DNA of 30,988 nucleotides from Clostridia bacterium (GCA_030526225.1 JAUNDF010000019.1:1-30988); one strand, 5' to 3'. Numbered from the stretch's first letter, positions 1,036 to 23,834 are shown. Numbers and translations are program-made. The notes: a model not told the origin generated them from the sequence alone.

Positions 1036-2433
1036 TTAATGAATCACCTTGGTGGCATAGCCGTGGGCATCGGCGAAGCGGGCGGCGACAGTATCGGGGC
1101 CGTCGACCAGCACCAGCAGCTTGCTGCTGCAGCCGGTGAAGGCGGAAGCATCAATGCTCGTTACGCTTTGCGGGATGTAGATGCGGGTCATGGTGCTGTT
1201 CATGAAGGCACGGGCGCCGATGGTCTTCAGCGAGCGGGGCAGACGGATGTATTCGGCGCTGGCTTTGGCAAAGGCTTCAGCCTCGATGGCGGTGATGCCG
1301 TCGGGGATGGTCATCGGCTTGCCGCAGATTCTGCTGCCGGTGACATAGATGATATCGCTCCAGCCGTACAGCACGGACAAATCCCAAACGCCGCTGCTCA
1401 GCTCGATTTCATCCTGACTGTTGATGCAGTAGGTAATCATTTCACGCCGGATGATTTCACGCGCCGCAGGGCCGGGGAGCCCTGCAAGGGACACCCTGCC
1501 GGAGCCCTGCAGTGCATCTGCGATGCGGGGCTCCAGGAAGCTGACCCAGGCAGCCGCCGCGCCGCTCTTTATGTAATAGTTGCAGGCCATGCCATCGGCG
1601 GCGGTGAAATTGTGACCGTAGTGGTCATCGCGCATGATGCTGTCGGGGATAAAGCAGTAATCGTAGGTGCAGTAGCCCAGGGGAGCACCCTTGCCCGCAG
1701 GCGCGTAGCCGGGGCAGTCCCAGGTGACATCCGCCTCGTACCAGTCACCCTCCAGCTCCAGCGCATTCCATGCGTGGGACTGGGCATCGGAGGTTACCAC
1801 ACGGGCATCGATGCCCGCGGCCTAAAGCAAATCAAGGTAGGCGATGGCGAAGCTTTGGCACACACCGAAGCCGCGGAACAAAAGCACATCCGCCCCGTGA
1901 TAGACCAGCGTGGAATCGTAATAGGAGTTCTTTGCCAGATACTCGTACAGGTACAGCGCCTTTTCGTAATCGCTGCTGCCGCTGCAGCCGGCCACCAGCT
2001 GCTTTGCCTTGGCGGCCACATAATCGTAGCCTGTCACATTCAGGTAGCAGTAGGCATAATCATAGCCTTCAATCTGGGCGACCAGCAGATAACGCCCGGG
2101 CTGATAAAAGCGGTAGTTGAATTTGGTTACATCGTTGCAGTAAACAACCTGATAGTAATCAGACCAGTCAACCTGCACTGCCAGCAGCATGGTGTGGGTA
2201 TAGCCGGGGAAGCTGTAGGCCGATTGGATGCTGACTGCCTGCCCGGTGGTCAGCTTGCCGGTGATGACAAAATCAGCCGCACTCTTTTGCTGGATTTCAT
2301 CCGTTGAAAAGGCAAAGGTGCCCGGCTCGCCCTCGGGCAATACCTGCAAAAAGCCGGGATTGCCGTCGGCCAAAGCCGTGGGCAGCAGGAACAGGACAAG
2401 CAGCAACAGCACAAGCGCGGCAAGTTTTTTCAT
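1036..2433 (-). CDS. Secreted transglutaminase-like cysteine protease with C-terminal LRR (BspA-like) repeats; contains one in-frame TAG (plus-strand CTA at 1822-1824)
   Basis: ORFs 1822..2487 and 1036..1800 share one frame, separated by TAG plus 7 sense codons. Signal peptide MKKLAALVLLLLVLFLLPTALA, with RBS GGAGG 7 nt upstream of ATG 2433. The catalytic Cys (GFGVCQSFA) lies upstream of the TAG. His and Asp (SHAWNALE...DVTWD) lie downstream. The C-terminus has repeats of the form IPDGITAIEAEAF / LPRSLKTIGARAF / IPQSVTSIDASAF. TAA stop. Confidence 0.6.
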
Positions 2434-2626
2434 ACAGACGGCCTCCGATTCAGGTGCGAAACCAAACATAGCATTCACATAATACAATGATTGTATTATT
2501 TTTCATACAGGATGTCAATCATCCGTTTGTTTACAAATTGTTCACAATTCATTCCGAATGGCTTCACATTGCGGATGCAAGATAGAATGGCCGGGGTGGA
2601 ATCATCCCGGGAGAGGAGCAAATCCC

Positions 2627-4546
2627 ATGAACGATCCGAAAAAGAAAAAATGGCTGACGATTACCATCATTGCCTTTATCGCCATGGTCATCATCAACCA
2701 GCTGGTGGTGCTGCCCTTTGTCTCTGCGTCGGGGCAGGCGAAGGAAACCACCTACGACTTCATGCTCCGGGAGCTGGAGAAGAAAAACATCACCCATGTG
2801 GAAATCAACGGTGAAAAAATCTACTTCAAGCTGAAGGAAAGCAAGCCCGACAAGGATGCCAAGCTGCTGGATACGCTGCTGGCGGCGCAAAACAACAATG
2901 TGTACGTCACCACCGCCATGACCGATCTGGCGCTGGTGGAGCGGCTGTACCAGTCCGGGGCGGAATTCACCCAGGTGAATCAAAAGCAGATGTCCCCCAT
3001 TGTGAGCATGCTGCTCAGCTACGGCTGCTTCATCCTGATTTATCTGGTGCTGATGCGGGTGATGATGAAGAAAATGGGCGGCGGCGGCTCGGTGATGAGC
3101 TTCGGCAAGTCCAACGCCCGCATCGTGGCCAACGATAAGGTGGATATCCGCTTCACCGATGTGGCCGGTCAGGAGGAAGCGAAGGAGAACCTGAAGGAAA
3201 TTGTGGATTTCCTCCACGACCCGAAAAAATACGAGCAGATGGGTGCCGTGCTGCCCAAGGGCGCATTGCTTGTCGGCCCTCCCGGCACCGGTAAAACGCT
3301 GATTGCCAAGGCGGTGGCCGGTGAGGCCCATGTGCCCTTCTTCTCCATTTCCGGCTCGGAATTTGTGGAAATGTTTGTGGGCATGGGCGCGGCCAAGGTC
3401 CGCGACCTGTTCAAGCAGGCCAAGGAAAAGGCCCCCTGCATCATCTTCATTGATGAGATTGATGCCGTGGGCAAAAAGCGCGACACCGCCGGCATCGGCG
3501 GCAACGATGAACGGGAGCAGACCCTCAACCAGCTGCTTTCCGAAATGGACGGCTTTGACGGCAGCAAGGGCGTGATTCTGCTGGCTGCCACCAACCGCCC
3601 CGAAACACTGGACCCTGCGCTCCTGCGCCCCGGCCGCTTTGACCGCAGGGTACCCATGGAGCTGCCCGACCAGAAGGGCCGCGAGGCGGTGCTGCGGGTC
3701 CATGCCAAAAAGGTGAAGATGGCTGATACCGTGGACCTGGTGGCCATCGCCCGGTCAACCCCCGGCGCTTCCGGTGCGGATTTGGCCAACCTGATTAACG
3801 AATCCGCCCTGCAGGCCGTCCGTGCCGGGCACGACAAGGTGCAGCAGGAGGACATCGAGGCCAGCGTGGATGTGGTGTTGGCCGGTCAGCAGCGCAAGAG
3901 CACGGTCATCTCCCCCAGGGAGAAGCAGGTGATTGCCTACCACGAGGTGGGCCATGCTCTGACTGCCGCGCTGCAGGATGAATCCGCCCCCGTGCACAAG
4001 ATTACCATCATCCCCCGGACCTCCGGCGCGCTGGGCTTTACCATGCAGCTGGATGAGGAGGAGCGCTTCCTGCACACCAAGCCAGAGCTGACGGCGCGGC
4101 TGGTAACCCTGTGCGGCGGCCGCGCAGCGGAAATGCTGGTGTTCGGCAAGGCCACCACCGGTGCCGCCAACGATATTGAGCAGGCCACCCGCATGGCCCG
4201 CGCCATGGTAACCCGCTACGGCATGAGCGATTCCTTCGGTATGGTGGCACTGGAGGCCAATGCCAACCGCTATCTGGGCGGTGACGGCGAGCTGACCTGC
4301 TCCGGCACCACTGCCGCCCGGATTGATGACGAGGTGATTGCCCTGGTGCAGGATGCCTTCCAGCAGGCAAGCAAAATCATTGCCGAGCACTGGTCTGCCT
4401 TGACCCGCATTGCCGATCAGCTGATCAGGCAGGAAAATATGTCCGGCGAGGAGTTCAAAAAGCTGCTGGACGAGGAATTGGAAACCAAGCGCCTCGCGGC
4501 ACAGGAAGCCGCCGGTGAGGGCAAGGAAAATGAAGTGAGTGAGTAA
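2627..4546 (+). CDS. ftsH: ATP-dependent zinc metalloprotease FtsH
   Basis: N-terminal TM segments, Walker A GPPGTGKT, Walker [32 protein letters not shown] and zinc motif HEVGHAL. RBS GAGAGGAG lies 8 nt upstream of ATG 2627, so the ORF-track start at 2558 is probably too early. TAA stop. Confidence 0.93.
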
Positions 4547-4550
4547 AAAG

Positions 4551-4590
4551 ACAGGGCCGTGAAAATGATTCACAGCCCTGTTTCTTATTC
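4551..4590. terminator. Bidirectional terminator hairpin (repeat copy A) between convergent ftsH and the SH3-domain gene
   Basis: ACAGGGC-c-GTGAA-aatga-TTCAC-a-GCCCTGT (7 bp + 5 bp stem) followed by TTTCTTATT on the plus strand. AAAAAG upstream gives a T-tract on the minus strand. Confidence 0.65.
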
Positions 4591-5463
4591 CGCGAACATC
4601 AGCTTTCCCTGACGGTCATATACCGCCATAACCTCCCTGTCCAACTCGGGAATTTCGTACATGACGATGATGCCGTTGGCGTCAATGGTGATATCGTGGG
4701 GGTGGATGATGTCATCCCGGCTGGGGTTGGATTGCCACAGCACGCGCCCATCCATGGTGATGGCCACGGGATGGGGGCCGTAGTAGCCGCAGATGTACAT
4801 GGTTCCGTCCCAGTCCACGGCGTGAGAGATGCCGGCACCAAGGGAGACCTTGCTTCTGCCCAGCTGCCACAGGCGGCGTCCGTTGGGCAAATCGTACAGG
4901 CTCAATCCTGTTTCGGTGTTGTAGATGGCCAGCGCGGGCTGCTGCTCTGTGCCGGCGATGAACACCGAGGTGCTTGTCAGCTCACCCACCTCGTAGACGA
5001 ATTCCGTTCTGGCCCACACGCAGGAGCGGTCGGCGCGGTACACGCCCACCGTCAGCCGTTCGCAGGCACTGTTTTCCAGCCGCCGGGCCACCACGCGAAG
5101 ACTGCCGCAGGGGGTATCCATCAACAGCTTGCCCTTTTTCTGCATGTCGGCAAAGCTGACAGGCTCGGTGGATTCGCGGTAGGTTCCACCGGGATTGGCA
5201 GGGGTCAGATAGCTTGACAGAATGTAGCCCTTTTTGCCGTTGTATTCGGCATAGGTGTAGTCCGCATCATAAGGGGCGCAGCCGGTGACCACCTCGTCCA
5301 GCGGAACCTTGACCAGCACCTTGCCGGAGGAGGACGGCCTTGCGCGCAGGGAGACCCACTCACTGCAGTTGGTCACCCGCATGTCCTCACCAAGGGCGGC
5401 GGCAGCAAGCAGCAGGGAAAAAGCAAAGCAGATAAAGCAGACAAGGATGAAGCGCTTTCGCAT
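4585..5463 (-). CDS. Secreted SH3-domain protein with a C-terminal beta-rich domain of unknown function
   Basis: Start chosen at MRKRFILVCFICFAFSLLLAAAALG (signal peptide), with RBS AAAGGAGG 7 nt upstream. The SH3_3-like segment is WVSLRARPSSSGKVLVKVPLDEVV...GKKGYILSSYL. TAA stop. Confidence 0.6.
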   Translation of the reverse strand: MRKRFILVCFICFAFSLLLAAAALGEDMRVTNCSEWVSLRARPSSSGKVLVKVPLDEVVTGCAPYDADYTYAEYNGKKGYILSSYLTPANPGGTYRESTEPVSFADMQKKGKLLMDTPCGSLRVVARRLENSACERLTVGVYRADRSCVWARTEFVYEVGELTSTSVFIAGTEQQPALAIYNTETGLSLYDLPNGRRLWQLGRSKVSLGAGISHAVDWDGTMYICGYYGPHPVAITMDGRVLWQSNPSRDDIIHPHDITIDANGIIVMYEIPELDREVMAVYDRQGKLMFAE

Positions 5464-5487
5464 ATTCGGGCCTCCTTTGGGGGATGA

Positions 5488-5524
5488 AAAACAGGGACTG
5501 TGAATCATTTTCACAGCCCCTGTT
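5488..5524 (-). terminator. Rho-independent terminator (repeat copy B, inverted relative to copy A) downstream of the zinc-ribbon gene
   Basis: Minus strand reads ACAGGGGCTGTGAAAATGATTCACAGTCCCTGTTTTTCATC. The hairpin core is the same as copy A and is followed by a T-tract. Confidence 0.6.
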
Positions 5525-5526
5525 GC

Positions 5527-6579
5527 TTATCTCCCCTGATACGGTACGTCGTTGATGCTGTCCAGCCGGCCGCCCTTGAAGGTCAGCTTCACCGCATCGC
5601 CTACCTTGAAGGATTGCCACTGCTCCAGGGGCAGGGTGGCTGTGTAGGTCTTGTTGTTCTTGTCGGCGAAGGTAACGGTGTACAGCTCCTCGCGGCCGCC
5701 CTCGCGCTGTTTGTTGGTCAGGGTGAATTCGCCCCACTTGGGCTCATCATCCTTGCCGGCGGTCTTGATGACATCGGCTTGCAGCCAGCGGTCAATTTCG
5801 TAGGTGTACTGGGTTTTATAGATGGGCTCATCCCGGTAGACGGGCTGCTTTTCGCGCTCGGTGTAGTACTCGGTCTTGTACCGGGGCGTTTTGACCTCCT
5901 TGGAGGTAAAGGTACCGTCACCGTTGTTGACGTACTGGGTGGAGGTGTCATAGCCATCCTGAACCTGACGGCTCTTTTTGACGGTGACATACTCGTAGTG
6001 GTCCACCACCTTTTCGTAGTGGTGGATGGCCTGACTGGTTTTGATGAGCCTTGCCCCCTCGGGCAGCTGCCAGTCCGCCTCGGTGACGGTGGTGTATTCC
6101 TCAATGCTGACGGCACGGGCCCATGCCTTTTCCAGCACGGTGGTGTCGGCGTTTTTGGGAATCAGGTTGATGACCAGGGCGATGACCAGCACGGCCAGCA
6201 GCAGCAGGGGCCACCAGCGCTTTTTCTTCGGGGCCGGGGCGGGCTGCATGGCGGCGGCCTTGGCGGCAGCCTTGGCTTTCAGCTTTTCCTCGTTGGTGAA
6301 ATAATCGTCCTTGCTGTCGGTTTTGGCACTGCCGCAGTTGGTGCAGTAGGCGGCGGTGATGCGGTTCATGGTGCCGCAGTTGGCGCAGAGCCAGTCGGCG
6401 CCCTGTCCGTACTTGGCGGCGGTATCATCATCCAGGAAGGCGTTTTTCTCCTCCGGCAGATAGAATACCGTGTTCTCATGCTGGGGCTTGCCGCAGCCCG
6501 GGCAGGATTTGGTCAGGCCGCCGATGCCCTTATTGCCGCAAAAGGGGCAGTCCCACAAGGCTTCAATCTTTTTGCTCAT
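5527..6579 (-). CDS. Membrane protein with two N-terminal zinc ribbons, one TM helix and a Tyr/Thr/Lys-rich extracytoplasmic domain; function unknown
   Basis: CPFCG-x12-CPGCG and CANCG-x10-CTNCG motifs. A basic stretch KKKRWW is followed by the TM segment PLLLLAVLVIALVINLI. RBS GGAGAG lies 6 nt upstream of the ATG at 6579. TAA stop. Confidence 0.65.
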   Translation of the reverse strand: MSKKIEALWDCPFCGNKGIGGLTKSCPGCGKPQHENTVFYLPEEKNAFLDDDTAAKYGQGADWLCANCGTMNRITAAYCTNCGSAKTDSKDDYFTNEEKLKAKAAAKAAAMQPAPAPKKKRWWPLLLLAVLVIALVINLIPKNADTTVLEKAWARAVSIEEYTTVTEADWQLPEGARLIKTSQAIHHYEKVVDHYEYVTVKKSRQVQDGYDTSTQYVNNGDGTFTSKEVKTPRYKTEYYTEREKQPVYRDEPIYKTQYTYEIDRWLQADVIKTAGKDDEPKWGEFTLTNKQREGGREELYTVTFADKNNKTYTATLPLEQWQSFKVGDAVKLTFKGGRLDSINDVPYQGR

Positions 6580-6632
6580 ATGCATCTCTCCGTATTGACA
6601 ATAATCATGGGGAACGCCGGTTCACTACTATT

Positions 6633-6661
6633 ATCATACAACAAATATTGGAAAATTGCAA
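6633..6661 (-). promoter_or_regulatory. Candidate sigma-A promoter for the zinc-ribbon gene
   Basis: Minus strand reads TTGCAA-N17-TATGAT (plus-strand TTGCAA at 6656-6661 and ATCATA at 6633-6638). Confidence 0.4.
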
Positions 6662-6676
6662 AGAAAAATGCAGCGG

Positions 6677-6705
6677 TTGCACATAGGCCTGATTTTTGGT
6701 ATACT
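6677..6705 (+). promoter_or_regulatory. Candidate sigma-A promoter for the orphan SBP / kinase / regulator operon
   Basis: TTGCAC (6677-6682), a 17-nt spacer, then TATACT (6700-6705). It sits about 45 nt upstream of ATG 6751. Confidence 0.45.
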
Positions 6706-6750
6706 ATATCCATCTATGTACAATTTGGCACAATCGGGAGTGAAAACAAC

Positions 6751-7725
6751 ATGAAAAAAATTTCAGCGCTGCTGATGCTCATCTGTGCTGCCCTGCTGCT
6801 GTGTGCCTGCACCGGGGAAAAACCTGCAGCGGAGGAAGCCGCGCCTATCGTCATCGGCTTTTCCCAGCTGGGTTCGGAAAGCAGCTGGCGCATCGGCAAC
6901 ACCAAGGACATGACCGAGGCAGCCGAGCGCGCGGGCATCACCATGATGCTGAAGGATGGCCGCCAGAAGCAGGAAAACCAGATTGCCGCCATCCGCGAAT
7001 TCATCGCCCACAGGGTGGATGTGATTGTGTTTTCCCCCATCGTGGAGGATGGCTGGGACAATGTTCTCAGGGAGGCAAAGCAGGCGGGCATTCCGGTGCT
7101 GCTGATTGACCGCATTATCCAGACCACCGATGACAGCCTGTACGCCGGGTGTATCGGCGCTGATTTTTATCTGGAGGGGCGCAACGCCGGTGAATATCTG
7201 CTGAAAAAGGCGGATGCCATGGGCGCGAAGGAGCTGCACGTGGTGGAAATCACCGGCACGGAGGACTCCACCCCCATGCGCCAGCGCATGAAGGGCTTCC
7301 ACAGCGTGGTGGACGGTGACAGCCGCATCGTGACATTGGAATCGGTCAACGGCGATTTCCTCCGTTCACGCGGGCGGGAGTGCATGGAATATCTGCTGAA
7401 GAAGTACGACGGGGAAATCGATGTGGTCTACTCCCACAACGATTCCATGACCCTTGGCGCCATTGAGGCGCTGGAGGCAGCCGGAGTCAAGCCGGGGCAG
7501 GATGTGATTATCATCACCGTGGACGGCGAACAGGCGGCCATCGACCTGCTGAAGGAGGGCAAAATCAACTGCGTGGTGGAATGCACCCCCATGCTGGGCG
7601 ATGAGGTGATGCGCCTTTGCACCAAATTGGCCGGCGGCGAAAAAATCGTGAAGCTGACCCATCCCGTGGAGCAGGTGTTTACCGATTTTGATGACCTGAC
7701 ACAGATTGGCCCCCGTGGCTACTGA
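6751..7725 (+). CDS. Lipoprotein sugar-binding protein (periplasmic-binding-protein type I, YtfQ/RbsB-like), probably the sensor partner of the adjacent kinase
   Basis: Lipobox LLLCAC in MKKISALLMLICAALLLCACTG. PBP fold motifs IVIGFSQLGSESSWR, VDVIVFSP, AGIPVLLIDR and VVYSHNDSMTLGAIEAL. RBS GGGAG is upstream. No adjacent permease; it is followed directly by the kinase and regulator. The ORF-track N-terminal extension from 5500 is antisense shadow. TGA stop. Confidence 0.8.
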   Translation: MKKISALLMLICAALLLCACTGEKPAAEEAAPIVIGFSQLGSESSWRIGNTKDMTEAAERAGITMMLKDGRQKQENQIAAIREFIAHRVDVIVFSPIVEDGWDNVLREAKQAGIPVLLIDRIIQTTDDSLYAGCIGADFYLEGRNAGEYLLKKADAMGAKELHVVEITGTEDSTPMRQRMKGFHSVVDGDSRIVTLESVNGDFLRSRGRECMEYLLKKYDGEIDVVYSHNDSMTLGAIEALEAAGVKPGQDVIIITVDGEQAAIDLLKEGKINCVVECTPMLGDEVMRLCTKLAGGEKIVKLTHPVEQVFTDFDDLTQIGPRGY

Positions 7726-7750
7726 TGCAGGGCGGAGCGATGAGATTGTG

Positions 7751-9232
7751 ATGAACAAGCGCGAAAAGACAAGGAGCATGGGCAGTCAGCTGCTGCAGTT
7801 TTCCCGATTGCTGACGGTGGTGCTGGCGGTGCCGGCGGTTATCAGTCTTGTGATGATGCTGGTGTCCAGCTCCATCTACCACCACACCCTCAGCCAGATG
7901 GAGCGGGTGGCCCAGCTGCAGCCGGTTATCAAGACAGACATTCCGGAGGCGGTGTGGTATGCCGTGGCCGGACGCACCTCCTTTGAGGAGGGCAATGTGT
8001 GGGGCATGGTGCGGCAGGTGACGGACACGCTGGATGACATGATTCTGGCGGATGAGAGCGAGGGCCTGTCCCTGACCATCGCCCGGCGCACCATGGATAC
8101 CATGGCCGGGTATATCACGCAGATTGAGACAGAGATGGCCAACCGCATGCCCGTGGTGGAGCTGTAGAGCATGGTGGAGGAGGTCCGCAGCGTGGGTGCG
8201 CTGGTGGAATCCATCCTGCAGGAATACATTACCGGCTCCATCGGGTCGGCGGCAACCATCAACAACGGCCTGCGCAAGCAGACCATGGTGTTTGCGGCGG
8301 TGGAAATCCTGCTGCTGATTGTGGCCTCCGTGGCGGCACAGCGCAACCGCAAGCGGCTGATGAATCAGCTGCTGAACCCCATTGAAAATGTGGAAAACTT
8401 TACGGCACAGGTGGCCGGCGGCGATTTATCAGCACCGCGGCTGCCCAAAGCAGAAATGACCGAGCTGGTGCCGCTGACGGAATCCATCAACTCCATGGCC
8501 GACCGGCTGGAATCGCTGTTCGGGCAAATCAAGCGGGAGCAGGACAACCTGCGCAAGGCAGAGCTTCGGACACTGCAGGCGCAGATTAACCCGCACTTCC
8601 TTTATAATACGCTGGATGCCATTGTGTGGCAGGCGGAGGAGGGCCGCAATGATGAGGTCATCCGCACCACCCGCGCCCTCAGTGACTTTTTCCGCATTTC
8701 CCTGTCCTCCGGCGATGACTGGATTCCCGTATCGCAATAGCTGCAGCACCTGTCGGGCTATCTGCTCATCCAGCGCACCCGCTACCGGGATATCCTCCGC
8801 TACGAAATCGATGTGGATGAAAAAATGCAGGACCTGATGATTTTGAAGCTTCTGCTCCAGCCGCTGGTGGAAAATGCGCTGTACCACGGCATCAAGTTCA
8901 AGCGGGGCGGCGGCACCATCCGGGTGGAGGGGAGGCTGGAGGATGACCACATGGTCTTCCGGGTCACCGATACAGGCAAGGGCATGCCCCCATAGCGGCT
9001 GAAGGCCGTGGTGGACAGCATGCACGGCGAGGCACCGCCCCTGACGGCAGAGTTTGCCCAGGGCGGCTCCGGATTCGGGCTTCGCAACGTAAACCAGCGC
9101 ATCAAGCTGTACTACCGGCAGCAGGAAGGGCTGCAGATTGAAAGCGGAAGCGGCGGCACCGCCGTGACCTTCCGCGTACCTGTTTTAAGAAAGGGGGAGA
9201 CCGACCGTGGTGAAGGTATTTCTGGTGGATGA
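7751..9232 (+). CDS. YesM/LytS-type sensor histidine kinase (TM - sensor - HAMP - His_kinase - HATPase_c) containing three in-frame TAG codons (8165-8167, 8738-8740, 8993-8995)
   Basis: Four ORF pieces (7706.., 8171.., 8813.., 9008..) share one frame and are separated only by TAG. H-box region QAQINPHFLYNTLDAI, N-box LLLQPLVENALYHGIK, G1 VTDTGKGM and G2 GGSGFGLRNVNQRI are all intact. The start is uncertain (ATG 7751 chosen). The TGA stop at 9230-9232 overlaps the regulator start by 26 nt. Confidence 0.7.
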
Positions 9233-10775
9233 CGAAATCGTTTTCCGGGAGGGTGTGCGCAACTCCTTCCCCTGGGATGAAAGCGGCTATACCCTGGTCG
9301 GCGAGGCCCCGGACGGCGAAATCGCCCTGACCATGATCCGCGACCAGAACCCGGACATCATCGTCACCGACATCCGCATGCCCTTTATGGACGGGCTGCA
9401 GCTGTGCGCCGAAATCCGCCGCATCATGCCCTGGGCGGGCATCATCATCCTCTCCGGATACGATGATTTCACCTACGCCCGCAAGGCCATGGCCATGGGG
9501 GTGCAGGAGTATCTGCTCAAGCCCGTGAACGTCACCGAGCTGCGGGATGCGCTGGACCGGGTGTACGGCCGCATGCAGGAGGAAAAGCGCCTGCGGGAAA
9601 ATGCCCGGGGCATCCGGGAAAGAATGGGTGCCAACAACCGCTTTGTCAAGGACAAGCTGCTCTTTGCATTGCTGGCAGACGAGCTGGATGAAAAAAGCGC
9701 CGCCACCATGATTGAGCAGCTGCGGAAAATCGGCATCAATCTGTTTGCCCAGCGCTATGCGGTGCTGGATATCTCCTTTGAGCAAAACGAAAACCAGACA
9801 AGGGACAAGGCCATGGATGTGCTGTACTCCCTGTCCGATGCGTCCTCTGGGGCGGCTATGGTCTGCACGGGCAAAAAGGGCGCGCTGGCCATTATCCTTG
9901 GGGACAGCGATGCGGATACGGAGGAGCGGGCCTACGGCTTTGCGGATTCCGCCGTGAAGGCGCTGGAGGAAAGCGGCTTCCGGCGGGTGCTGGTGACGGT
10001 GGGGGACACCGTGACCCGGCTGACGGAGCTGCCCGCAAGCATGAAGGCCGCCCGTCATCTGCGCCATCTGCACACCCTTGGCGAGCAGACAGAGCTGCGG
10101 GTGGTGGGCAGCCGGGACATCGGCAGTGCCCCGGAGAAAAAACGGCAGATGACCATTCGTCCCCTGCATGAGCAGATTCAGTATATCAGCGCCTCCCAGC
10201 TGGATTCCCTGTTCGACAGCTATGTGCAGTCACTGGATGCGGGGGATTTGCACGCCTATGTGGTCAGCGATTACCTGCAGGTGGAGGCTATGCTGACGGC
10301 CAACCGCATCGTGCTGGATGCCGGCGGCGACCCCGAGCAGGTACTGGGCAGCAAGGAAAGCATGTCCTTCGGCGATCACGATTTTGCCGCCGCCCGGGGC
10401 CTCCTGCGAAAGGCCATCGAGTACCGCGACAAAAACGCCACCCACAAGACCAACCCGGCCATCGCCCGGGCAAGAAGCTACATGTCCCAGCATTTTCAGG
10501 ACCCGAACCTGATGCTGCAGGATGTGGCCGACCATGTGGGCATGTCCTCCAGCCGCTTTTCCACCGTGTTTTCGCAGGAGACGGGCTACACCTTCACCGA
10601 ATACCTCACCGAGCTGCGCCTGAGCAAGGCCAAGGAGCTGCTCCGCGCCACCCAGCTGCGCTCTCACCAAATCTGCGAGATGGTGGGCTACAACGACCCC
10701 CACTACTTCAGCTACCTGTTCCGCAAAAACACCGGCGTCACTCCCAGCGAGTACAGAAGGGCAGAGAAGGGGTGA
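9207..10775 (+). CDS. YesN-type response regulator (REC domain + C-terminal AraC/XylS HTH)
   Basis: REC motifs VFLVDDE, DIIVTDIRMPFMDG, ILSGYDDF and YLLKP. The C-terminal AraC HTH is MLQDVADHVGMSSSRFSTVFSQETGYTFTEYL...GYNDPHYFSYLFRKNTGVTPSEYR. GTG start with RBS GGGGGAG 7 nt upstream. TGA stop. Confidence 0.88.
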   Translation: MVKVFLVDDEIVFREGVRNSFPWDESGYTLVGEAPDGEIALTMIRDQNPDIIVTDIRMPFMDGLQLCAEIRRIMPWAGIIILSGYDDFTYARKAMAMGVQEYLLKPVNVTELRDALDRVYGRMQEEKRLRENARGIRERMGANNRFVKDKLLFALLADELDEKSAATMIEQLRKIGINLFAQRYAVLDISFEQNENQTRDKAMDVLYSLSDASSGAAMVCTGKKGALAIILGDSDADTEERAYGFADSAVKALEESGFRRVLVTVGDTVTRLTELPASMKAARHLRHLHTLGEQTELRVVGSRDIGSAPEKKRQMTIRPLHEQIQYISASQLDSLFDSYVQSLDAGDLHAYVVSDYLQVEAMLTANRIVLDAGGDPEQVLGSKESMSFGDHDFAAARGLLRKAIEYRDKNATHKTNPAIARARSYMSQHFQDPNLMLQDVADHVGMSSSRFSTVFSQETGYTFTEYLTELRLSKAKELLRATQLRSHQICEMVGYNDPHYFSYLFRKNTGVTPSEYRRAEKG

Positions 10776-10970
10776 GAGGGCTCCCAGTTACATCCCTTCC
10801 ATACAAGCTGTCAAACACATGCAACGGAAATGTATTTGATGGCCAAACAAAAACCATATCAAACAAACAGGCGATAGAAAAATCAACTGTTTGTGAAATA
10901 ATTTTCAACCTTTGACAGCAAAACGGATTCCGATGGGAAATATTCAACCAAAATTGAAATGTTTGTGCAT

Positions 10971-10998
10971 TTGCTTTTGTTTTCGTGTGTGCTATCAT
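10971..10998 (+). promoter_or_regulatory. Candidate promoter of the ABC transporter operon
   Basis: TTGCTT-N16-TATCAT, with TGC immediately upstream of the -10 (extended -10-like). It sits about 45 nt upstream of ATG 11045. Confidence 0.35.
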
Positions 10999-11044
10999 CA
11001 AGACAACGGCAGAAGCCGAAAAGAGATTTTTGGAGGTACTCATC

Positions 11045-11973
11045 ATGAAGAAACTGTTTGCTGTCGCTATGGCGCTGGTCCTGGCATTGAGCCTGTGTGT
11101 GACCGCTATGGCCGATACCATCACCGTTGGTATCGTCAACAATCCCCCTTCCGAATCCGGTTACCGTGAAGCCAACGTAAAGGATTTTGAGCGCGTGTTC
11201 TGCGAAGACAACGGCTACACCGCCAAGACCGCTTACAGCCTGAAGAACGACGAGCAGCTGAGCGCCGCTCAGCAGTTCATCACCGACGGCGTTGATTACC
11301 TGCTGGTATCCGCCGCTGAAACCACCGGTTGGGACGTTGTGCTGGCAGCTGCTCAGGAAGCCGGCATCCCCGTGTTCCTGTTCGACCGCACCATCGATTG
11401 CGACGACAGCCTGTATGAGGCAGCTGTTGTTTCCGACATGCGCAATGGCTGAAGGGCCTGGGCCTGGACTCCTACAAGATCGTGCACATTCAGGGCGCTA
11501 TGGGCTCCGACGCTCAGATCGGCCGTACCAATCCCCTGACCGAGCAGGTTGCTGCTGACGATGCCTGGACCCTGGTTGTGGAACAGACCGCTACCTGGGA
11601 CGAAGCTGAAGCCAAGAAGATTACCGAGTCCGTCATCAACTCCGGCGAACCCTTCAACATCATCTACGCTGAAAACGACGGCATGGCACGCGGTGCTGTT
11701 GCTGCTCTGGACGAAGCCGGCATCACCCACGGCAAGGACGGCGACGTGATCGTGATGGGCTTTGACTGCAACACCTGGGCTCTGGAAGAAGTGCTCAAGG
11801 GCGCTTGGAACTATGATGGTCAGTGCTCTCCCTTCCAGGCTGATGTCATCGACGGCATGATCAAGAAGCTGGAAGCCGGCGAAACCCTGACCGAGAAGAA
11901 GATCATCTCCGAAGAAAAGGGCTTCGACTGCAACACCATCACCGCTGAAGACGTGGCCAACTACGGCATCTAA
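11045..11973 (+). pseudogene. YtfQ-like ABC transporter sugar-binding protein, disrupted by a frameshift near 11440-11452
   Basis: Signal peptide MKKLFAVAMALVLALSLCVTAMA, with RBS GGAGG 8 nt upstream. The N-terminal half is in frame 2 and ends at TGA 11450-11452. The C-terminal half (AQWLKGLGLDSYKIVHIQGAMGSDAQIGRT...) continues in frame 1, which is open from 11419. It is a paralog of the SBP at 6751-7725. TAA stop at 11971-11973. Confidence 0.75.
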
Positions 11974-11989
11974 TCCAACAAAACAAAGG

Positions 11990-12025
11990 GCGCGGTGCGG
12001 CGGAAAAACCGCACCGCGCTTTTTT
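11990..12025 (+). terminator. Intra-operon Rho-independent terminator/attenuator after the SBP gene
   Basis: GCGCGGTGCGG-cggaaaaa-CCGCACCGCGC (11-bp perfect stem) followed by TTTTTT. Confidence 0.8.
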
Positions 12026-12081
12026 CAGAAATCATCAGCGCCGCTGCAACGGTAAATCCTTAGGATAAAGGAGTCCTGACC

Positions 12082-15706: not shown

Positions 15707-15810
15707 CCGTTTTGCAGAGGTGTCCGCCGGGCGGGCATCTCTGCTTGCGCCTGTGAAAGATTTCTGCCGGGAAAAGGATTATGACGGCTGTATGGAGAAA
15801 TTCTTTTCAC

Positions 15811-15840
15811 AGAAGATGAGGGGAGTCGAACCCCTGTCCG
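15811..15840 (-). other. tRNA/tmRNA 3'-end-like fragment (T-arm plus 3' acceptor strand); not a complete RNA gene
   Basis: Minus strand reads CGGAC-AGGGG-TTCGACT-CCCCT-CATCTTC-T. It has a canonical 5-bp T-stem and a TTCGACT T-loop. No matching 5' acceptor strand, D-arm or anticodon arm lies upstream, and there is no CCA. Confidence 0.4.
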
Positions 15841-15887
15841 AAACAAGCGAAACAAATACCCCAACAATCAATCGGAGGGACTAAAAT

Positions 15888-17480: not shown

Positions 17481-17495
17481 GGGGAGGAAACCGAC

Positions 17496-18197
17496 ATGAT
17501 GCTACCCGAACTTCGCCGCGTGGTGTATGAGCAGAACATGGAGCTGCAAAAGCGCGGTCTTGTGACCTACACCTGGGGCAATGTATCCGGCATTGACCGG
17601 GACAAGGGCGTGTTTATCATCAAGCCCTCCGGCGTGGATTATGACAAGCTGTCCCCGGAGAATATGGTGATTGTGGACCTGGAGGGAAAGCGGGTGGAGG
17701 GTGATTTGAACCCCTCCTCCGACATGCTGACCCATCTGGAGCTGTACAACCACTTCCCGGAAATCGGCGGCGTGGTGCACACCCATTCCCCCTATGCGGT
17801 GGCATGGGCGCAGGCAGGGCGGGACATTCCCTGCTACGGCACCACCCACGCGGATTACTTCTACGGCACCATCCCCTGCACCCGCAGCCTGACCCCGGAG
17901 GAAATCGATGCCGGGTACGAGCGCAACACCGGCGTGGTGATTATCGAGACCCTTGAGGAACGGAAAATCAACCCCATCCACACCCCCGGCATCATCTGCC
18001 GCAACCATGGCCCCTTCGCCTATGGCAAAAATGCGGAGGATGCGGTGTATCACGCGGTGGTGCTGGAGGAGGTGGCCAAAATGGCCCTGTTCACCAAGCA
18101 GATTAACCCCGATGCAGGCCCCGCGCCCAAGCACATTATGGATAAGCACTTCCTGCGCAAGCACGGTCCCAATGCGTACTACGGGCAGAAGAAATAA
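17496..18197 (+). CDS. araD: L-ribulose-5-phosphate 4-epimerase
   Basis: Close match to my recollection of E. coli AraD along its length ([64 protein letters not shown]). RBS GGGGAGG. TAA stop. Confidence 0.9.
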
Positions 18198-18205
18198 CAG
18201 GCAAG

Positions 18206-18237
18206 TCCCCTGCAGTGAACGCCGCAGGGGATTTTGC
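18206..18237 (+). terminator. Rho-independent terminator after araD
   Basis: TCCCCTGC-agtgaacgcc-GCAGGGGA followed by TTTTGCTT. Confidence 0.7.
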
Positions 18238-18296
18238 TTGACAGCGGCGGGCGTATCCGTGATAATACAAGCATCAGTAAAACGGGAGGATGTCCC

Positions 18297-20414
18297 ATGA
18301 ATAATGAAGCAATCCGTCAGCGGGTGGAAGCACTGCTGGCGCAGATGACATTGGAGGAAAAGGTGGCCCAGCTGGTGCAGGTGCCCTATGCCCATAACGG
18401 CCGTGAGGAAAGCTTGCGCTGGGCAAAGATGGGTGCAGGCTCCTTCCTGCATATTCTGGGGGATGATGCCCGGGAGGTGCAGCAGACGGCGCTGCAGTCC
18501 CGACTGGGGATTCCGGTGATTTTCGGCATCGATGCCATCCATGGCCACGGCCTGAACCCCAACGCCACCATCTTCCCCAGCCAGCTGGCCTGTGCCTGCA
18601 GCTGGGATGCGGATACGGCGCGCACCATGGGCAGGGATACCGCCCGGGAGGTGGCCACCGACGGCCTGCACTGGACCTTTTCGCCGGTGCTGTGTCTGGG
18701 CCGTGATACACGCTGGGGCCGCATTGACGAGACCTTCGGCGAGGATCCGTATCTGGCGGCTGAGCTGGGCGCGGCCATTATCGAAGGGTATCAGGGCGAT
18801 GACCTGAGCGATGACGAGCATATTCTGGCCTGTGCCAAGCACTACCTTGGCTACGGCGAAGCCACCGGCGCCCGGGATGCCGTGGATACGGAATGCACCG
18901 AGCGCAAGATTCGCGAGGTGTTTCTGCCGCCCTTCAAACGGGCGGTGGAGGCGGGCTGTGCCACCATCATGACGGCATACGGAGCCATCGACGGTACGCC
19001 TTTGACATCCAATAAGCGCATGCTCAAGGACATCCTCCGGGATGAGCTGGGCTTTGACGGCTTCGTGGTTACCGACTGGGACAACGCGGCCTCTTTGGTG
19101 ACCAATCAGCACACGGCGGCAGACCTGAAGGAAGCCTCCCGGCAGGCGGCCGAGGCGGGCAACGACATGATGATGACTACCCTGGGCTTTTATGAGCATG
19201 CGGTGCAGGCCGTGCGGGAGGGAAGCCTTGACGAGGGCGTGATTGATGATGCTGTGCGCCATATCCTGACCATCAAATGCCGCATGGGCTTGTTTGAAAA
19301 GTGCGAAAAGACCGGCAGACCCGGCTGCATCGGCTGTGAGGAGCACCGCATGGATGCCCTGAATGCTGCCCGAAAGAGCGTAACGCTGCTGCGCAACAGC
19401 GGCATCCTGCCCCTGAAGGATGTAAAGAAGCTGGCTGTGGTGGGTGCCAATGCGGATGATATCCGTGCCCAGTACGGCGACTGGACCTACTTCACCCATC
19501 CCATTGCGGATGAGAACCGTCCGGCTGTGCGCCCCTATGTCACGCTGAAGGAAGGGCTGGTACAGATTTGCGCTGACAAGGGCATCGAAATGGTATATGC
19601 CCGTGGCTGCGGACCCATCGCAGATGACAGGGATGACATCCCCGCGGCACTGGCGGCGGCTGAGGGTGCCGATGCAGTGGTGCTGTGCGTGGGCGATACA
19701 TGGGCCCAGCATGGCGAAACAAAGGACAGAGCCAACCTGACCCTGTCCGGCAGACAGCTGGCGCTGTATCGGGCGCTGAAGCAGCAGGGGCACAAGGTTA
19801 TCACGGTGCTGGTGGCCTCCAAGCCCCTGTGCATGGAGGAGGCGGCATAGGCCGATGCGGTGCTGTGCGGCTTTAACGGCGGCATGTACGGCGGTCAGGC
19901 GCTGGCAGAGGCCATCTTCGGCATCATCAATCCGGAGGGACGGCTGCCCATCACCTTCCCGCGTCATTCCGGTCAGCTGCCGGTGTACTACAATCAGCTC
20001 CCCGGCTGGCATGGCGGCAAATACTGCGATTTGCCCGAAACGCCCCTGTTCGCCTTTGGCGAGGGCATGGGCTATGCACCCTTCCGCTACGACAGCGCGG
20101 CCTTTGACAAGGACACCATGACCGTGCAGGTGCAGCTGACCAACACCGGCGACATCCCCGGCACGGAAACCGTGCAGGTGTATGTGCACGATGTGGTTTC
20201 CAGCGTAATGCAGCCGGTGAAGCGGCTGGTGAAGTTTGCCAAGGTTACGCTGGCTGCGGGGGAAACGAAGACCGTCTCCCTGCCCCTGACCATGGAGGAC
20301 TTCTCCCTTGTCAACGCTGCCTGTCAGCGCGTGGTTGAGCCGGGCCTGTTTGAAATCATGGCCGGGCATTCCAGCAAGGACGAGGATTTGCTGAAAACGG
20401 AAGTTGAATGGTAA
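18297..20414 (+). CDS. Glycoside hydrolase family 3 enzyme (beta-glucosidase / beta-xylosidase / arabinofuranosidase type) containing one in-frame TAG (19848-19850)
   Basis: ORFs 18234..19850 and 19860..20414 share one frame, separated by TAG plus 3 sense codons. RBS GGGAGGA lies upstream of ATG 18297. GH3 motifs present are FGIDAIHG, KHYLGYG, nucleophile region GFDGFVVTDWD, PLCMEEAA[TAG]ADAVLCGFNGGMYGGQALAEAIFG..NPEGRLPITFP, and a C-terminal Fn3-like domain (VQVQLTNTGDIPGTETVQVYV). TAA stop. Confidence 0.75.
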
Positions 20415-20439
20415 CAAAAATGCCCTGCACAGGCAGGGC
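20415..20439 (-). terminator. Terminator hairpin between convergent GH3 and DUF2442 genes
   Basis: GCCCTGC-acag-GCAGGGC, with an A-run upstream that gives ATTTTTG on the minus strand. Confidence 0.55.
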
Positions 20440-20441
20440 GG

Positions 20442-20732
20442 TTAAGATACGGAAGCATATTCAAAGCTGTTGGCGTACATGTATTCCGGCGAGCAGTCGA
20501 TATCACCGTCCAGCCAGGTGACAACGCCGTGGTCCAGCTGTGCGTTTTTGAACACCTCAATGTCCTTCAGCGGCTGGAATACGGGTCCCTGCAGGAGCGT
20601 GGCATCAAACAAACGCTGTTCGCCGGTGGAAAAGGTCAGAATCATCATAAAATCATCCAGCGGCTTTACCTTCACGATTTTGATGGGGCCGGAAGGCTGA
20701 CCGCCATAAACATATCCGTCTTTGATGTACAT
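20442..20732 (-). CDS. DUF2442-family small protein
   Basis: 96-aa protein. The pattern VKPLDDFMMILTFSTGEQRLFD...HGVVTWLDGDIDCSPEYMY resembles DUF2442. It is tightly coupled to the upstream DUF4160 gene by an 11-nt gap. TAA stop. Confidence 0.7.
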   Translation of the reverse strand: MYIKDGYVYGGQPSGPIKIVKVKPLDDFMMILTFSTGEQRLFDATLLQGPVFQPLKDIEVFKNAQLDHGVVTWLDGDIDCSPEYMYANSFEYASVS

Positions 20733-20743
20733 GGTGTCCTCCT

Positions 20744-21010
20744 TTATTTCAGCGGGTCGATTTTGTCAAAGGGCATGGAGCGCACGGCTTTGTTCCATGC
20801 CTCATACAATTCATCTTCGTGGATTGCCATCCAGCCGGACAGCATGCGATACTGCTTCACCGGAAGACGGCCTTCAAGGATTTCACCGTCAAGGCCGACA
20901 GATGCTTCGTCCTCACCGTAGTAAACATGGACATGAGGCTTGTGATGCTTATCGTTGTCGTTGAATAACATTTTGATGACCAGCCCGAAGAATCGGCTTA
21001 ATTCCGGCAT
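20744..21010 (-). CDS. DUF4160-family small protein
   Basis: MPELSRFFGLVIKMLFNDNDKHHKPHVHVYYGEDEASV...GRLPVKQYRMLSGWMAIHEDEL matches the DUF4160 pattern. RBS GGGAGGG lies 6 nt upstream of ATG 21010, so the ORF-track start at 21031 is too early. TAA stop. Confidence 0.72.
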   Translation of the reverse strand: MPELSRFFGLVIKMLFNDNDKHHKPHVHVYYGEDEASVGLDGEILEGRLPVKQYRMLSGWMAIHEDELYEAWNKAVRSMPFDKIDPLK

Positions 21011-21099
21011 TGAAATCCCTCCCTGCAGCATATGCTTTCTATCTTCATTATACCGAATCCTGCATAAAACTCAAGTAGAGCAACAATCGAGGTACAACG

Positions 21100-22407
21100 A
21101 TGATTCGCATGGAAATTGCGCTGCTTCTGGTGCTGTTGTTTGTGGCGTTCAACTACTTCACGGCATGGAAAAAGCAGACACCCCTGCATGCCACCTTTGC
21201 GGTGCTGCTGGTAACGGCCATCTACCATGTGGCGCTGGATGGCATCAGCGTGTACACGGTGGCGCGGCTGGATACCATCCCCCTGTGGATAAACGATCTG
21301 GTGCACCGGTTCTTTATCGGCACCATGATTCTGGTGGTCTATCTGTTTTATCAGTACATCTCCACTTTGGTGGAGGATGAAACGGGCAAGCCGTCCCCAA
21401 GGCTGAACGCCTTTGCCAGAATCTACCTGATGATGGCATAGGCCGGGGCGGCTTTCCTGCCGGTGCACTACGCGGTCACGCCTTTGGGCAACTACTCCGA
21501 CGGCATTCATGCCATGAGCTGCTACGTGCATGTCAGCTTTTATCTGGTGCTGTGCGTGATTATGCTGGCGGTGAACTGGAAGCAGATTTCCGTCAAAAAG
21601 CGGAATGTCATCGGCTCGGCCATGGCCATTGAGATGATTATTTCGCTGCTGCAGTCCTTCAACCCCACATGGCTGATTTCCTCCATGGGCATCACCCTGA
21701 TGACACTGGCCTTCTACCTGACGCTGGAAAATCCGGATATCCTTCGCGGCGAGCTGGTGGAGCAGAAGATGTCCATGCTGTACCTGAAAAGTCAGGTCAA
21801 TCCTCATTTCCTGTACAACACATTAGGGGCTATCCGCATTCAGGCAGAGCTTGACGGCGACAAAAAGGTGGCTGATTTGCTGATGCGGCTGGCGGATTTT
21901 TTTCGCATGAGCGTGAAGGTGGACCGGCCCATGGTATAGCTGGAAAGCGAACTGGATATGCTGGATGCGTACATGGATTTGATGTGCTACCGCTATCCGG
22001 AGCTGCACTACGAGTGTGACATCGAGCCGGAGCTGTATGAAGCGGCGGTGCCCAATTTCATCCTCCAGCCCATGGTGGAAAACAGCCTGCTCCACGGCTT
22101 GAAGAACAAGGGCTACCGCGGCACTGTGGCGGTGACGGCCCGGGCAACGGAGCAGGGCATGGAAATCACCGTGAAGGACAACGGCGCGGGCTTTGCCGAA
22201 GGGAAAAAGGCCGCCATCGATGCCATGCTTCGCCACTACGCCAAGCATGCCCCCAAGCTGGAGGGCAACAGCATCGGTGTGCTGAATGTGCAAAAGCGCA
22301 TCAAGCTGCTGTGCGGCAAACAGTACGGCCTCAGCTATACGGAAAACCCTGACGGCGGCGTAACGGCGCATCTGCTGCTGCCGCTGGAAAAGGAGAAGGT
22401 GCAATGA
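21100..22407 (+). CDS. Membrane-embedded YesM/LytS-type sensor histidine kinase (multi-TM N-terminus) containing two in-frame TAG codons (21439-21441, 21937-21939)
   Basis: Three ORF pieces (21100.., 21463.., 21958..) share one frame and are separated only by TAG. H-box region KSQVNPHFLYNTLGAI, N-box ILQPMVENSLLHGLK, G1 VKDNGAGF and the GNSIGVLNVQKRI motif are intact. RBS GAGG. The TGA stop overlaps the regulator start (ATGA). Confidence 0.7.
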
Positions 22408-23796: not shown

Positions 23797-23834
23797 CCCG
23801 CGCATCTCCGAAAATGGGGATGCGCGGGTTTTTA
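23797..23834 (+). terminator. Rho-independent terminator after the PspC operon; overlaps the convergent antiporter stop
   Basis: CCCGCGCATC...GATGCGCGGG stem followed by TTTTTAT. Confidence 0.7.

Follow-up and report, generated by a model that had tools for sequence, protein, structure and literature searches.

Genes and in-frame TAG codons of the window

The window, i.e. the whole stretch of 30,988 nucleotides that was analysed, derives from an uncultured gut-type Clostridia bacterium with a genomic GC content of 59% (metagenome-assembled genome with NCBI proteins MDO4483647-677). It holds 22 real genes and one pseudogene, fewer than the 27 genes counted in a preliminary description of the same DNA. 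The gene content of the contig is chromosomal (Mfd, FtsH, an ABC sugar transporter and GH3) with Clostridia/Christensenellales-like relatives, and no phage, pyl or methyltransferase genes were found in the window. The following features are considered below.

1036..2433, minus strand: transglutaminase-like (TGase-like)/BspA-LRR secreted protein gene, 465 codons, ending in TAA
1822-1824, minus strand: TAG of the TGase-like gene, codon 204
7751..9232, plus strand: kinase 1, YesM-type sensor histidine kinase, 493 codons, ending in TGA
8165-8167, 8738-8740 and 8993-8995, plus strand: TAGs of kinase 1, codons 139, 330 and 415
9207..10775, plus strand: AraC-type response regulator, partner of kinase 1, Pfam Response_reg plus HTH_18/HTH_AraC
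11046..11973 (limits approximate), plus strand: sugar-binding protein (SBP) pseudogene with an out-of-frame deletion
18297..20414, plus strand: GH3 glycoside hydrolase, 705 codons, ending in TAA
19848-19850, plus strand: TAG of GH3, codon 518
21100..22407, plus strand: kinase 2, YesM-type membrane sensor histidine kinase, 435 codons, ending in TGA
21439-21441 and 21937-21939, plus strand: TAGs of kinase 2, codons 114 and 280
22404..23144, plus strand: AraC-type response regulator, partner of kinase 2, intact, with an ATGA stop/start overlap with kinase 2

Seven TAG codons stand in frame in four genes: one in the TGase-like gene, three in kinase 1, one in GH3 and two in kinase 2. The preliminary description had placed all seven correctly, but its figure of five affected genes has to be lowered to the four that its own list names. 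None of the four contains an in-frame TAA or TGA or a frameshift, and the earlier observation that no TAA or TGA interrupts a reading frame held for every gene of the window. The TAGs track the coding strand of genes on both DNA strands, and five of the seven lie within one unbroken Pfam domain match. Transglut_core (residues 151-235) is continuous across the TAG of the TGase-like protein, and Glyco_hydro_3_C (362-593) extends through that of GH3. In kinase 1, His_kinase (270-347) covers codon 330 and HATPase_c (366-478) covers codon 415, while His_kinase in kinase 2 (226-301) covers codon 280. The TAG-carrying genes are all accessory or dispensable, and three of the TAGs lie within one kinase. 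The partner regulator of kinase 1 is intact, lacks internal stops and overlaps the end of kinase 1 with its start, which argues that the kinase 1 two-component system is still in use.

The sole non-TAG lesion in the window is found in the SBP gene, which had been described as truly frameshifted, and rightly so. Near 11440-11452 some 22-23 nt have been deleted out of frame, and compared to the paralog at 6745-7725 approximately 7-8 residues are missing. The N-terminal portion reads up to ...VVSDMRNG*, after which the C-terminal portion restarts in a different frame at AQWLKGLGLDSYKIVHIQG. This gene does qualify as a decaying pseudogene.

The 22 genes terminate with TAA (12) or TGA (10) and none with TAG. 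The absence of TAG terminators thus stands as first described, whereas the accompanying tally of 16 TAA and 11 TGA does not. Set against the clade baseline, this absence is an almost weightless argument: in relatives (160 loci), TAG terminates only 74/742 and 48/695 genes (7-10%), so that 0/22 would arise with a probability of 0.10-0.21 and is not significant. The near absence of CTAG (none in the window, and a median of 0.09 per kb in relatives) is one reason why TAG seldom serves as a stop throughout the clade. Neither tRNA genes nor prfA were found in the window. Among the relatives' 160 loci, none of the 9 tRNAs found has a CUA anticodon, and the relatives' loci examined contain no release-factor GGQ motif.

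Residues and codons at the TAG positions

A comparison of ortholog columns of the Codetta type, suggested in the preliminary description, was run on the seven columns and favoured Glu, with one site discordant. In kinase 1, Glu occupies the columns of codons 139, 330 and 415 in 114/120, 120/120 and 84/120 homologs, Gln being the second residue at two of them, and in kinase 2 the column of codon 114 has Glu in 75/80 orthologs. Four of the seven TAGs hence face a strongly conserved Glu (95%, 100%, 70% and 94% of homologs). The GH3 column is variable, with Glu as the commonest residue (29/82). The column of the TGase-like protein is variable and polar among 148 representatives (N25 E19 Q19 K18 R15 T15 D15), and the closest homolog, at 56% identity, has Glu there. 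The discordant site is codon 280 of kinase 2, with T58 S10 A5 P5 R2 and Glu in 0/80 orthologs; only 2.7% of true Glu codons show a pattern like this one.

Glu is the consensus at five of the TAG columns, only seven being available to score. Genuine Glu codons of the four proteins reach a Glu consensus at exactly this rate (71.4%), compared to 4%, 8% and 11% of the codons for Gln, Lys and Asp, respectively. By log-likelihood over the TAG columns, Glu outscores the runner-up by 10^2.8 to 10^3.8, and Gln lies approximately 10^3.4 to 10^5.7 below Glu. New compared to the preliminary description is the proposal of glutamate, and not of Gln or Pyl, as the residue that would be decoded.

Five of the seven TAGs follow a codon ending in A, although A makes up just 7.3% of third positions (p=4e-5, or approximately 2e-6 given the residues). 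The codons concerned are rare synonyms, i.e. CAA (8.6%), CCA (1.8%), GCA (12.9%, twice) and GTA (6.6%). On the 5' side, an A at position -1 is known to favour UAG readthrough (PMC4615788). Two nonsense TAGs in relatives are both preceded by C. The seven in-frame TAGs exceed chance, and the codon context in which they stand is far from random.

Conservation, relatives and read support

When a conserved column of kinase 1 was defined as one conserved at 90% or more, 93% of these columns were kept overall, with 91% before the TAGs and 93%, 100% and 91% in the segments following each TAG. Kinase 2 kept 82% of its conserved columns before the TAGs and 91% and 89% after them, and GH3 kept 55/56 downstream of its TAG. 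Together with the domain matches across five TAGs, these values bear out the earlier statement that conservation extends to both sides of the TAGs. A test of kinase 1 against drift, with the first hit taken as inactivating, gave only p~0.08. The four genes do not show the pattern of decaying pseudogenes, i.e. all three stops, frameshifts and conservation that relaxes beyond the first stop: they carry only TAGs and no indels, and conservation downstream equals that upstream.

The nearest relatives in the databases searched exhibit 56-72% protein identity and read GH3 and kinase 2 with the standard code. No internal stop was found in any of 80 GH3 orthologs, and 77/80 kinase 2 orthologs likewise lack one, the remaining three looking like decay. 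In one relative (L105/L106) a TAG stands at a Glu column of the orthologous kinase (GAG to TAG), and in L105 the regulator orthologous to the kinase 2 partner, which is intact in the window, is frameshifted; this two-component system is visibly decaying. In another relative, L102, a TGG has become TAG. The in-frame-TAG trait is not shared among the relatives compared and thus lacks phylogenetic support, but as none of them is closer than 56-72% identity, the comparison is hardly informative on the lineage of the window.

Two Logan contigs of about 2 kb each, from a separate assembly of run SRR24915835, match the window at 100% identity over all three TAGs of kinase 1. They represent the same sample as the window and not an independent strain. 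The TAGs of kinase 1 thus exist in the reads and are not the product of one assembler. The organism was seen in this one run only.

Readings of the in-frame TAGs

From the sequence comparisons above, we consider it probable that UAG is translated instead of terminating, with glutamate as the most likely inserted residue. The earlier proposal that TAG is decoded is accordingly kept as far as the residue columns, the domains, the conservation, the TAG-only lesions and the codon context are concerned, but not its argument from the count of TAG terminators. If true, this would be TAG translation on a bacterial chromosome, which has not been established for any.

On the other hand, Glu columns are also expected from recent GAG-to-TAG nonsense mutations, GAG being the most frequent Glu codon where GC is high and TAG the stop most easily reached from it. 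The four genes might thus be recent pseudogenes in a locus being shed, perhaps under a G:C-to-T:A (oxidative/MutY-type) bias, a reading that we regard as unlikely. With a typical nonsense spectrum, only 23% of TAGs should derive from GAG, and five or more of seven would do so with a probability of 0.009. A pure G:C-to-T:A mutator predicts TAG sources of 91% GAG and 9% TCG and would fit the Glu columns plus the one Ser/Thr column, but it also predicts 44% TAA and 17% TGA among the nonsense hits, and none is observed (the probability of 7/7 TAG is 0.0014, compared to 0.03 for the typical spectrum). The conservation test of kinase 1 under the mutator model does not reject drift (p=0.14). Of the nine conserved columns at which kinase 1 mismatches, no more than two could have been altered by a G:C-to-T:A change. 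The preference for rare A-ending codons is left unexplained by random mutation, and at the TCG-derived site the preceding A is not adjacent to the mutated base. The caveat of decay voiced in the preliminary description is still live, given the ease of GAG-to-TAG changes and the decaying precedent in L105/L106 (the TGG-to-TAG change in L102 adds to it), and the neighbouring SBP gene carries a real deletion. However, the four genes lack mixed lesions, none is frameshifted, and conserved columns are retained 3' of every TAG. All the hit genes are accessory and one was hit three times, but a gut Clostridia genome in which nonsense mutations alone had inactivated 4/22 genes would carry unusually many pseudogenes.

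Alignment columns reflect ancestry as much as present meaning, and UAG could be read through as another residue while the Glu columns merely record descent from GAG. Possible routes are a Gln amber suppressor (supE-like, or carried on a TAG-recoded phage or plasmid), near-cognate decoding after RF1 loss, or pyrrolysine. The natural UAG meanings associated with prokaryotes are indeed Gln (TAG-recoded gut phages) and Pyl (archaeal Code 34), codon 280 of kinase 2 never faces Glu, and Gln ranks second at two kinase 1 columns. We nevertheless find such a reading improbable, because with Glu at 120/120 and at two columns of 94-95% any other residue would probably damage both kinases, and because the likelihood of Glu exceeds that of Gln by >10^3. 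The lack of phage, pyl and methyltransferase genes in the window also speaks against it, as does the fact that bacterial Pyl is reported solely in a few methylamine methyltransferases and one serine dehydratase. It is very improbable that the TAGs are consensus errors, e.g. from oxidative G-to-T damage at low coverage, or that the contig belongs to a foreign recoded element. The single run and the short Logan contigs, which hint at modest coverage, would be in line with an artefact, and G to T would account for most of the changes. Two assemblers agree at the kinase 1 TAGs, however, damage should also have produced TAA and TGA as well as numerous missense changes where residues are conserved, none of which is seen, the TAGs keep to the coding strand whichever DNA strand this is, and the contig carries ordinary chromosomal genes.

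Translation of UAG as glutamate has, to our knowledge, no bacterial precedent. The bacterial UGA reassignments (table 4, UGA=Trp; table 25, UGA=Gly) are similar in that a stop codon was captured as sense on a bacterial chromosome. They concern RF2, whereas a UAG change would involve RF1, and they occur mostly in AT-rich or reduced lineages, in contrast to the GC-rich genome studied here. All the stop reassignments that the Codetta screen and the gTranslate preprint list for bacteria are of UGA, with loss of RF2. TAG-recoded gut phages (crAss-like, Lak and others; table 15) also use TAG as sense in a gut-associated element and usually carry their own suppressor tRNA, but these are phage genomes in standard-code hosts that read TAG as Gln. 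Phage code 15 was rejected for the window on account of its chromosomal gene content and the far poorer likelihood of Gln. Archaea with genome-wide UAG-to-pyrrolysine decoding (Genetic Code 34; Kivenson et al., bioRxiv 10.1101/2024.09.30.615893) likewise have in-frame TAGs in otherwise intact homologous genes, with TAG rare or absent as terminator. They differ by their archaeal nature, by pylTSBCD and by their 22nd amino acid from a bacterial host with Glu columns. Pyrrolysine decoding was likewise found unsupported in the window, which has no pylTSBCD and whose TAGs reside at Glu columns of kinases, GH3 and a TGase-like gene and not in methyltransferases. The same codon has the same new meaning in the eukaryotic UAG/UAR=Glu codes, i.e. 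UAG=Glu in an oligohymenophorean ciliate (PMC10553269) and UAR=Glu in Blastocrithidia (PMC12153298), although these codes belong to protist nuclei, with eRF1 in use. The decoder to be expected in both cases would be a tRNA-Glu with a CUA anticodon.

For glutamate insertion at UAG in the window, the putative decoder would be a tRNA with a CUA anticodon, and its simplest source would be a tRNA-Glu altered by one base from CUC to CUA. The clade would have offered a starting point in which UAG was already a rare terminator and CTAG was avoided, new TAGs would mainly be silent GAG-to-TAG (G to T) changes, and these may so far be confined to accessory genes of low expression. Work on engineered E. 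coli (PMC3001078, PMC6207430) shows that a bacterium with amber suppression or deleted RF1 is viable with UAG as sense, and that suppression efficiency is context-dependent when RF1 is present; unlike the organism of the window, these strains were engineered. RF1-free cells that lack a dedicated tRNA respond to the unassigned UAG with mistranslation and ribosomal rescue and not with clean insertion of a single residue (PMC6207430). The strong preference for A-ending codons before the TAGs suggests ongoing competition with a putatively retained release factor 1. The stage reached would be an 'ambiguous intermediate' or an efficient suppressor and not a completed reassignment, in line with the 'ambiguous intermediate' route, with the release factor still present, that was proposed for Code 34 (10.1101/2024.09.30.615893).

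TAG codons and gene terminators

Seven in-frame TAG codons had been claimed in the preliminary description, and all seven were found at their positions, distributed over four genes and not over five as first proposed. Genes and codons are as follows.

1036-2433, minus strand: transglutaminase (TGase)-like gene, TAG at codon 204
7751-9232, plus strand: kinase 1, a sensor histidine kinase, TAG at codons 139, 330 and 415
18297-20414, plus strand: GH3 glycosidase, TAG at codon 518
21100-22407, plus strand: kinase 2, a sensor histidine kinase, TAG at codons 114 and 280

These genes are otherwise intact, and none of the genes in the window contains an in-frame TAA or TGA, in agreement with the earlier reading. 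The evidence base consists of these seven sites in one 31-kb window. Two Logan contigs, assembled separately from reads of run SRR24915835, match the window at 100% identity, also across the three kinase 1 TAGs; the TAGs are therefore present in the reads, which derive from the same sample and not from an independent strain. That the TAGs are an artefact is very improbable.

By our count the window holds 22 genes plus one pseudogene, instead of the 27 genes first given. The absence of TAG terminators stood up to this recount, with 12 genes ending in TAA and 10 in TGA (previously 16 and 11). However, TAG terminates only 7-10% of the genes in relatives (160 loci), and at this baseline the probability of zero TAG among 22 terminators is 0.10-0.21, so the missing terminators, being non-significant, were set aside as weak evidence for decoding. 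CTAG is absent from both strands of the window, where base composition predicts about 114 occurrences and a Markov estimate about 14, and TTAG is also scarce (9). We rejected the absence of CTAG as a special property of the window since its rarity is clade-wide (median 0.09 per kb in relatives, and rare in most of them), which helps to account for the infrequent use of TAG as a terminator in the clade. Avoidance of CTAG would by itself bar TAG from following C-ending codons (43% of codons).

Residues at the TAG columns

The alignment of homologs that the preliminary description had called for was carried out for all seven TAG columns, and glutamate was the commonest residue at five of them.

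Residues in homologs at the TAG columns, with the position of the codon preceding each TAG
Kinase 1, codon 139 (preceded by 8162-8164): E 114/120, Q 6
Kinase 1, codon 330 (preceded by 8735-8737): E 120/120
Kinase 1, codon 415 (preceded by 8990-8992): E 84/120, D 18, Q 11
GH3, codon 518 (preceded by 19845-19847): variable column, E most frequent (29/82)
Kinase 2, codon 114 (preceded by 21436-21438): E 75/80
Kinase 2, codon 280 (preceded by 21934-21936): T 58, S 10, A 5, P 5, R 2; E 0/80
TGase-like, codon 204 (preceded by 1825-1827, minus strand): variable polar column, N 25, E 19, Q 19, K 18 and others; nearest homolog E

The best 120 homologs listed for full-length kinase 1 were all full-length with at most 56% identity, and TAG-fragmented close relatives are not detectable in this way. 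For the TGase-like protein the exhaustive search was made with the core only, after the full-length query had matched just the C-terminal BspA-type leucine-rich repeats (LRR).

The proportion of TAG sites falling in a Glu-consensus column (5/7, 71.4%) equals that of genuine Glu codons in the same four alignments (71.4%), compared with 4%, 8% and 11% for Gln, Lys and Asp codons, and the runner-up residue trails glutamate by a factor of 10^2.8 to 10^3.8. The columns thus point consistently to one amino acid, and judged from the alignments the single meaning of TAG here, if one exists, is glutamate. Glu columns alone are not decisive, because GAG to TAG is also a one-step path to a nonsense codon.

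Decoding versus nonsense mutation

With the codon usage of the window, a random nonsense hit would give TAG with a probability of 0.61 if mutations follow a typical spectrum and 0.39 for a mutator acting purely by G:C-to-T:A changes, and the probability that all seven stops are TAG is 0.03 and 0.0014, respectively. Under the typical spectrum 48% of TAGs would stem from CAG and only 23% from GAG (P = 0.009 for at least five of seven from GAG). The mutator spectrum (GAG 91%, TCG 9%) fits the TAG sources but fails the stop-type test.

The four genes carry no indels, five of the TAGs are crossed by single Pfam domain matches, and both partner regulators of the kinases are intact, with starts overlapping the kinase genes. 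In kinase 1, conserved columns are kept at 93%, 100% and 91% in the segments after the TAGs versus 91% before, and the nine mismatches at conserved columns are mostly conservative. Drift over three nonsense hits would have produced about 84 substitutions, and about 17 missense changes at conserved columns (p = 0.004); if the first hit is taken as inactivating and only the later two are counted, the estimated p is about 0.08. Downstream of the TAG in GH3, 55 of 56 conserved columns are kept, and in kinase 2 the segments following the TAGs are conserved at least as well as the part preceding them.

The codons preceding the TAGs are also unusual. An A-ending codon stands before five of the seven (p = 4e-5), although just 7.3% of all third positions are A. 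These codons are CAA (8.6% of Gln), CCA (1.8% of Pro), GCA (12.9% of Ala, twice) and GTA (6.6% of Val); with CTT, which ends in T, a rare synonym precedes six of the seven TAGs, and only CTG is common. No such A bias precedes GAG, CAG, AAG, TAC or TAT codons. CTAG avoidance or a general bias at N|TA was rejected as its origin, since G-ending codons should then dominate and TAC and TAT are unbiased. Motif-specific conversion of AGAG to ATAG, or a corresponding sequencing error, was likewise rejected: 15 A|GAG codon pairs persist, and the missense changes that conversion would cause in other frames are not seen at conserved kinase 1 columns. At the TCG-derived site the A does not adjoin the mutated base. 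Adenine at position -1 is the main known 5' determinant raising UAG readthrough; the effect is documented in yeast, in mammalian cells and in 65 of 91 viral genes with readthrough, and 5' context is reported to have an influence in bacteria as well (PMC4615788). The pattern resembles that of functional codons under selection, perhaps decoded in competition with release factor 1 (RF1), and for the rare-codon context our best guess is that an A at -1 has been selected because it promotes readthrough.

Among kinase 2 orthologs from other gut metagenomes the only in-frame stops observed were TAGs, in the loci L105 (4593), L106 (5393) and L102 (2001). L105 and L106 represent one species in two assemblies (99.95% identical) with TAG at a Glu column, and the partner response regulator of L105 (5450-6351) is frameshifted; in L102, from a 36%-GC organism, TGG has become TAG at an invariant Trp. 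The base preceding these nonsense TAGs is C. Two wider screens were dropped: a frame-continuity scan for coding-like flanks (window and 80 relatives), whose background was similar for all three stops because of same-frame neighbour genes and shadow ORFs, and an ORF-versus-ORF BLASTP for stops spanned by homology, in which conserved antisense shadow ORFs of GC-rich genomes swamped the signal.

Taken together, we consider it reasonably probable that UAG is translated here, most likely as Glu, by a tRNA with a CUA anticodon; the tRNA and the residue it inserts, like the status of RF1, are inferred. The window contains no tRNA gene. Decay of the TAG-bearing genes by nonsense mutation would agree with the truly broken sugar-binding protein (SBP) gene, with the clustering of TAGs in accessory genes, with a mutator-like source spectrum and with the precedent in the relative represented by L105 and L106, but we regard it as unlikely. 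Readthrough as another residue, e.g. Gln or pyrrolysine, is less likely still. Under translation as Glu, UAG would have nearly vanished as a stop in the lineage and new TAGs would arise through silent GAG-to-TAG changes. A free-living, GC-rich gut Clostridia lineage with a natural UAG = glutamate code, at an apparent early or ambiguous stage (TAG would be about 1% of Glu codons, in accessory genes, with a selected A at -1 favouring decoding over RF1 termination), is a more tentative proposal, for which the chances fall slightly short of even.

Known codes, database annotation and gene content

For bacteria, both the gTranslate preprint and the Codetta screen list stop-codon reassignments of UGA alone, and a bacterial UAG read as a standard amino acid is mentioned in neither. 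One preprint notes as an aside that some bacteria have fully reassigned TAG; in the literature searched we found no example of this, and no report of a natural bacterium that lacks RF1 or reads UAG as a standard residue. In archaeal Code 34, by comparison, UAG is reported to be reassigned genome-wide to pyrrolysine, in gut phages it is read as Gln, and the only known UAG/UAR = Glu codes are those of protists (PMC10553269, PMC12153298). If true, a UAG = glutamate code here would be the first reassignment of UAG to a standard amino acid on a bacterial chromosome, would mean that capture of a stop codon in bacteria can extend to the one that depends on RF1, and would provide a natural 'ambiguous intermediate' of codon reassignment in a genome that is GC-rich and not reduced, and possibly a natural tRNA(CUA)/GluRS pair for genetic-code engineering. 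It would also bear on the interplay of TAG-recoded gut phages with their hosts.

An annotation problem, gene splitting by the NCBI pipeline, would likewise be exposed. The pieces separated by TAG are annotated as independent proteins (records within MDO4483647-677), e.g. a 189-aa 'histidine kinase' and a 254-aa 'leucine-rich repeat protein'; MDO4483647.1 (window 1036-1800) and MDO4483654.1 (8171-8740) are such fragments. Each fragment forms a 90%-identity cluster by itself, and those of the TGase-like gene represent their own 50% clusters as well, so the splitting propagates into protein databases. Code-prediction tools based on coding density miss UAG changes.

The closest genomes, Christensenellales/CAG-74-like and other gut or rumen Clostridia MAGs, share a protein identity of only 56-72%, so within the collections searched the lineage lacks a close sequenced relative. 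These genome and metagenome collections also yielded no second sample, the only exact protein matches being the two 2-kb Logan contigs, both within the window. The TAG trait was not found to be common to the relatives, which are distant. The window (GC about 59%) carries ordinary chromosomal genes, and its further content is as follows.

Secreted protein: the TGase-like/LRR protein
Sugar uptake: two sugar-binding proteins and an ABC sugar transporter
Sugar metabolism: FGGY kinase, L-ribulose-5-phosphate 4-epimerase and the GH3 glycosidase
Regulation: two histidine-kinase/AraC-type regulator pairs
Others: the C-terminal end of Mfd, and FtsH; acyl-CoA dehydratase-activase genes, DUF4097 and DUF1846
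4585-5463, minus strand: function-unassigned gene (292 aa), secreted-looking, no Pfam match
5527-6585, minus strand: function-unassigned gene (352 aa), weak sub-threshold zinc-ribbon match only
20529-20921, plus strand: ORF of 130 codons, no Pfam match, tandem TAG-TAA end at 20919-20924
23832-25010, minus strand: Na+/H+ exchanger family gene (PF00999), not a CrcB or EriC-F fluoride channel
25055-25133, minus strand: fluoride riboswitch (Rfam RF01734; 43.9 bits, E = 3.5e-9), directly upstream of 23832-25010

The ORF at 20529-20921 lies in the 680-nt gap of lower GC between GH3 and kinase 2 (20415-21099) and is probably not a gene. The frameshift reported earlier for the SBP gene (11046-11973, plus strand) was confirmed, with about 22-23 nt deleted out of frame near 11440-11452; the gene belongs to the ABC operon and has an intact paralog, SBP1, at 6745-7725. 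Of the long plus-strand ORF at 5500-7725, only the part from about 6745 on, where SBP1 starts, is real.
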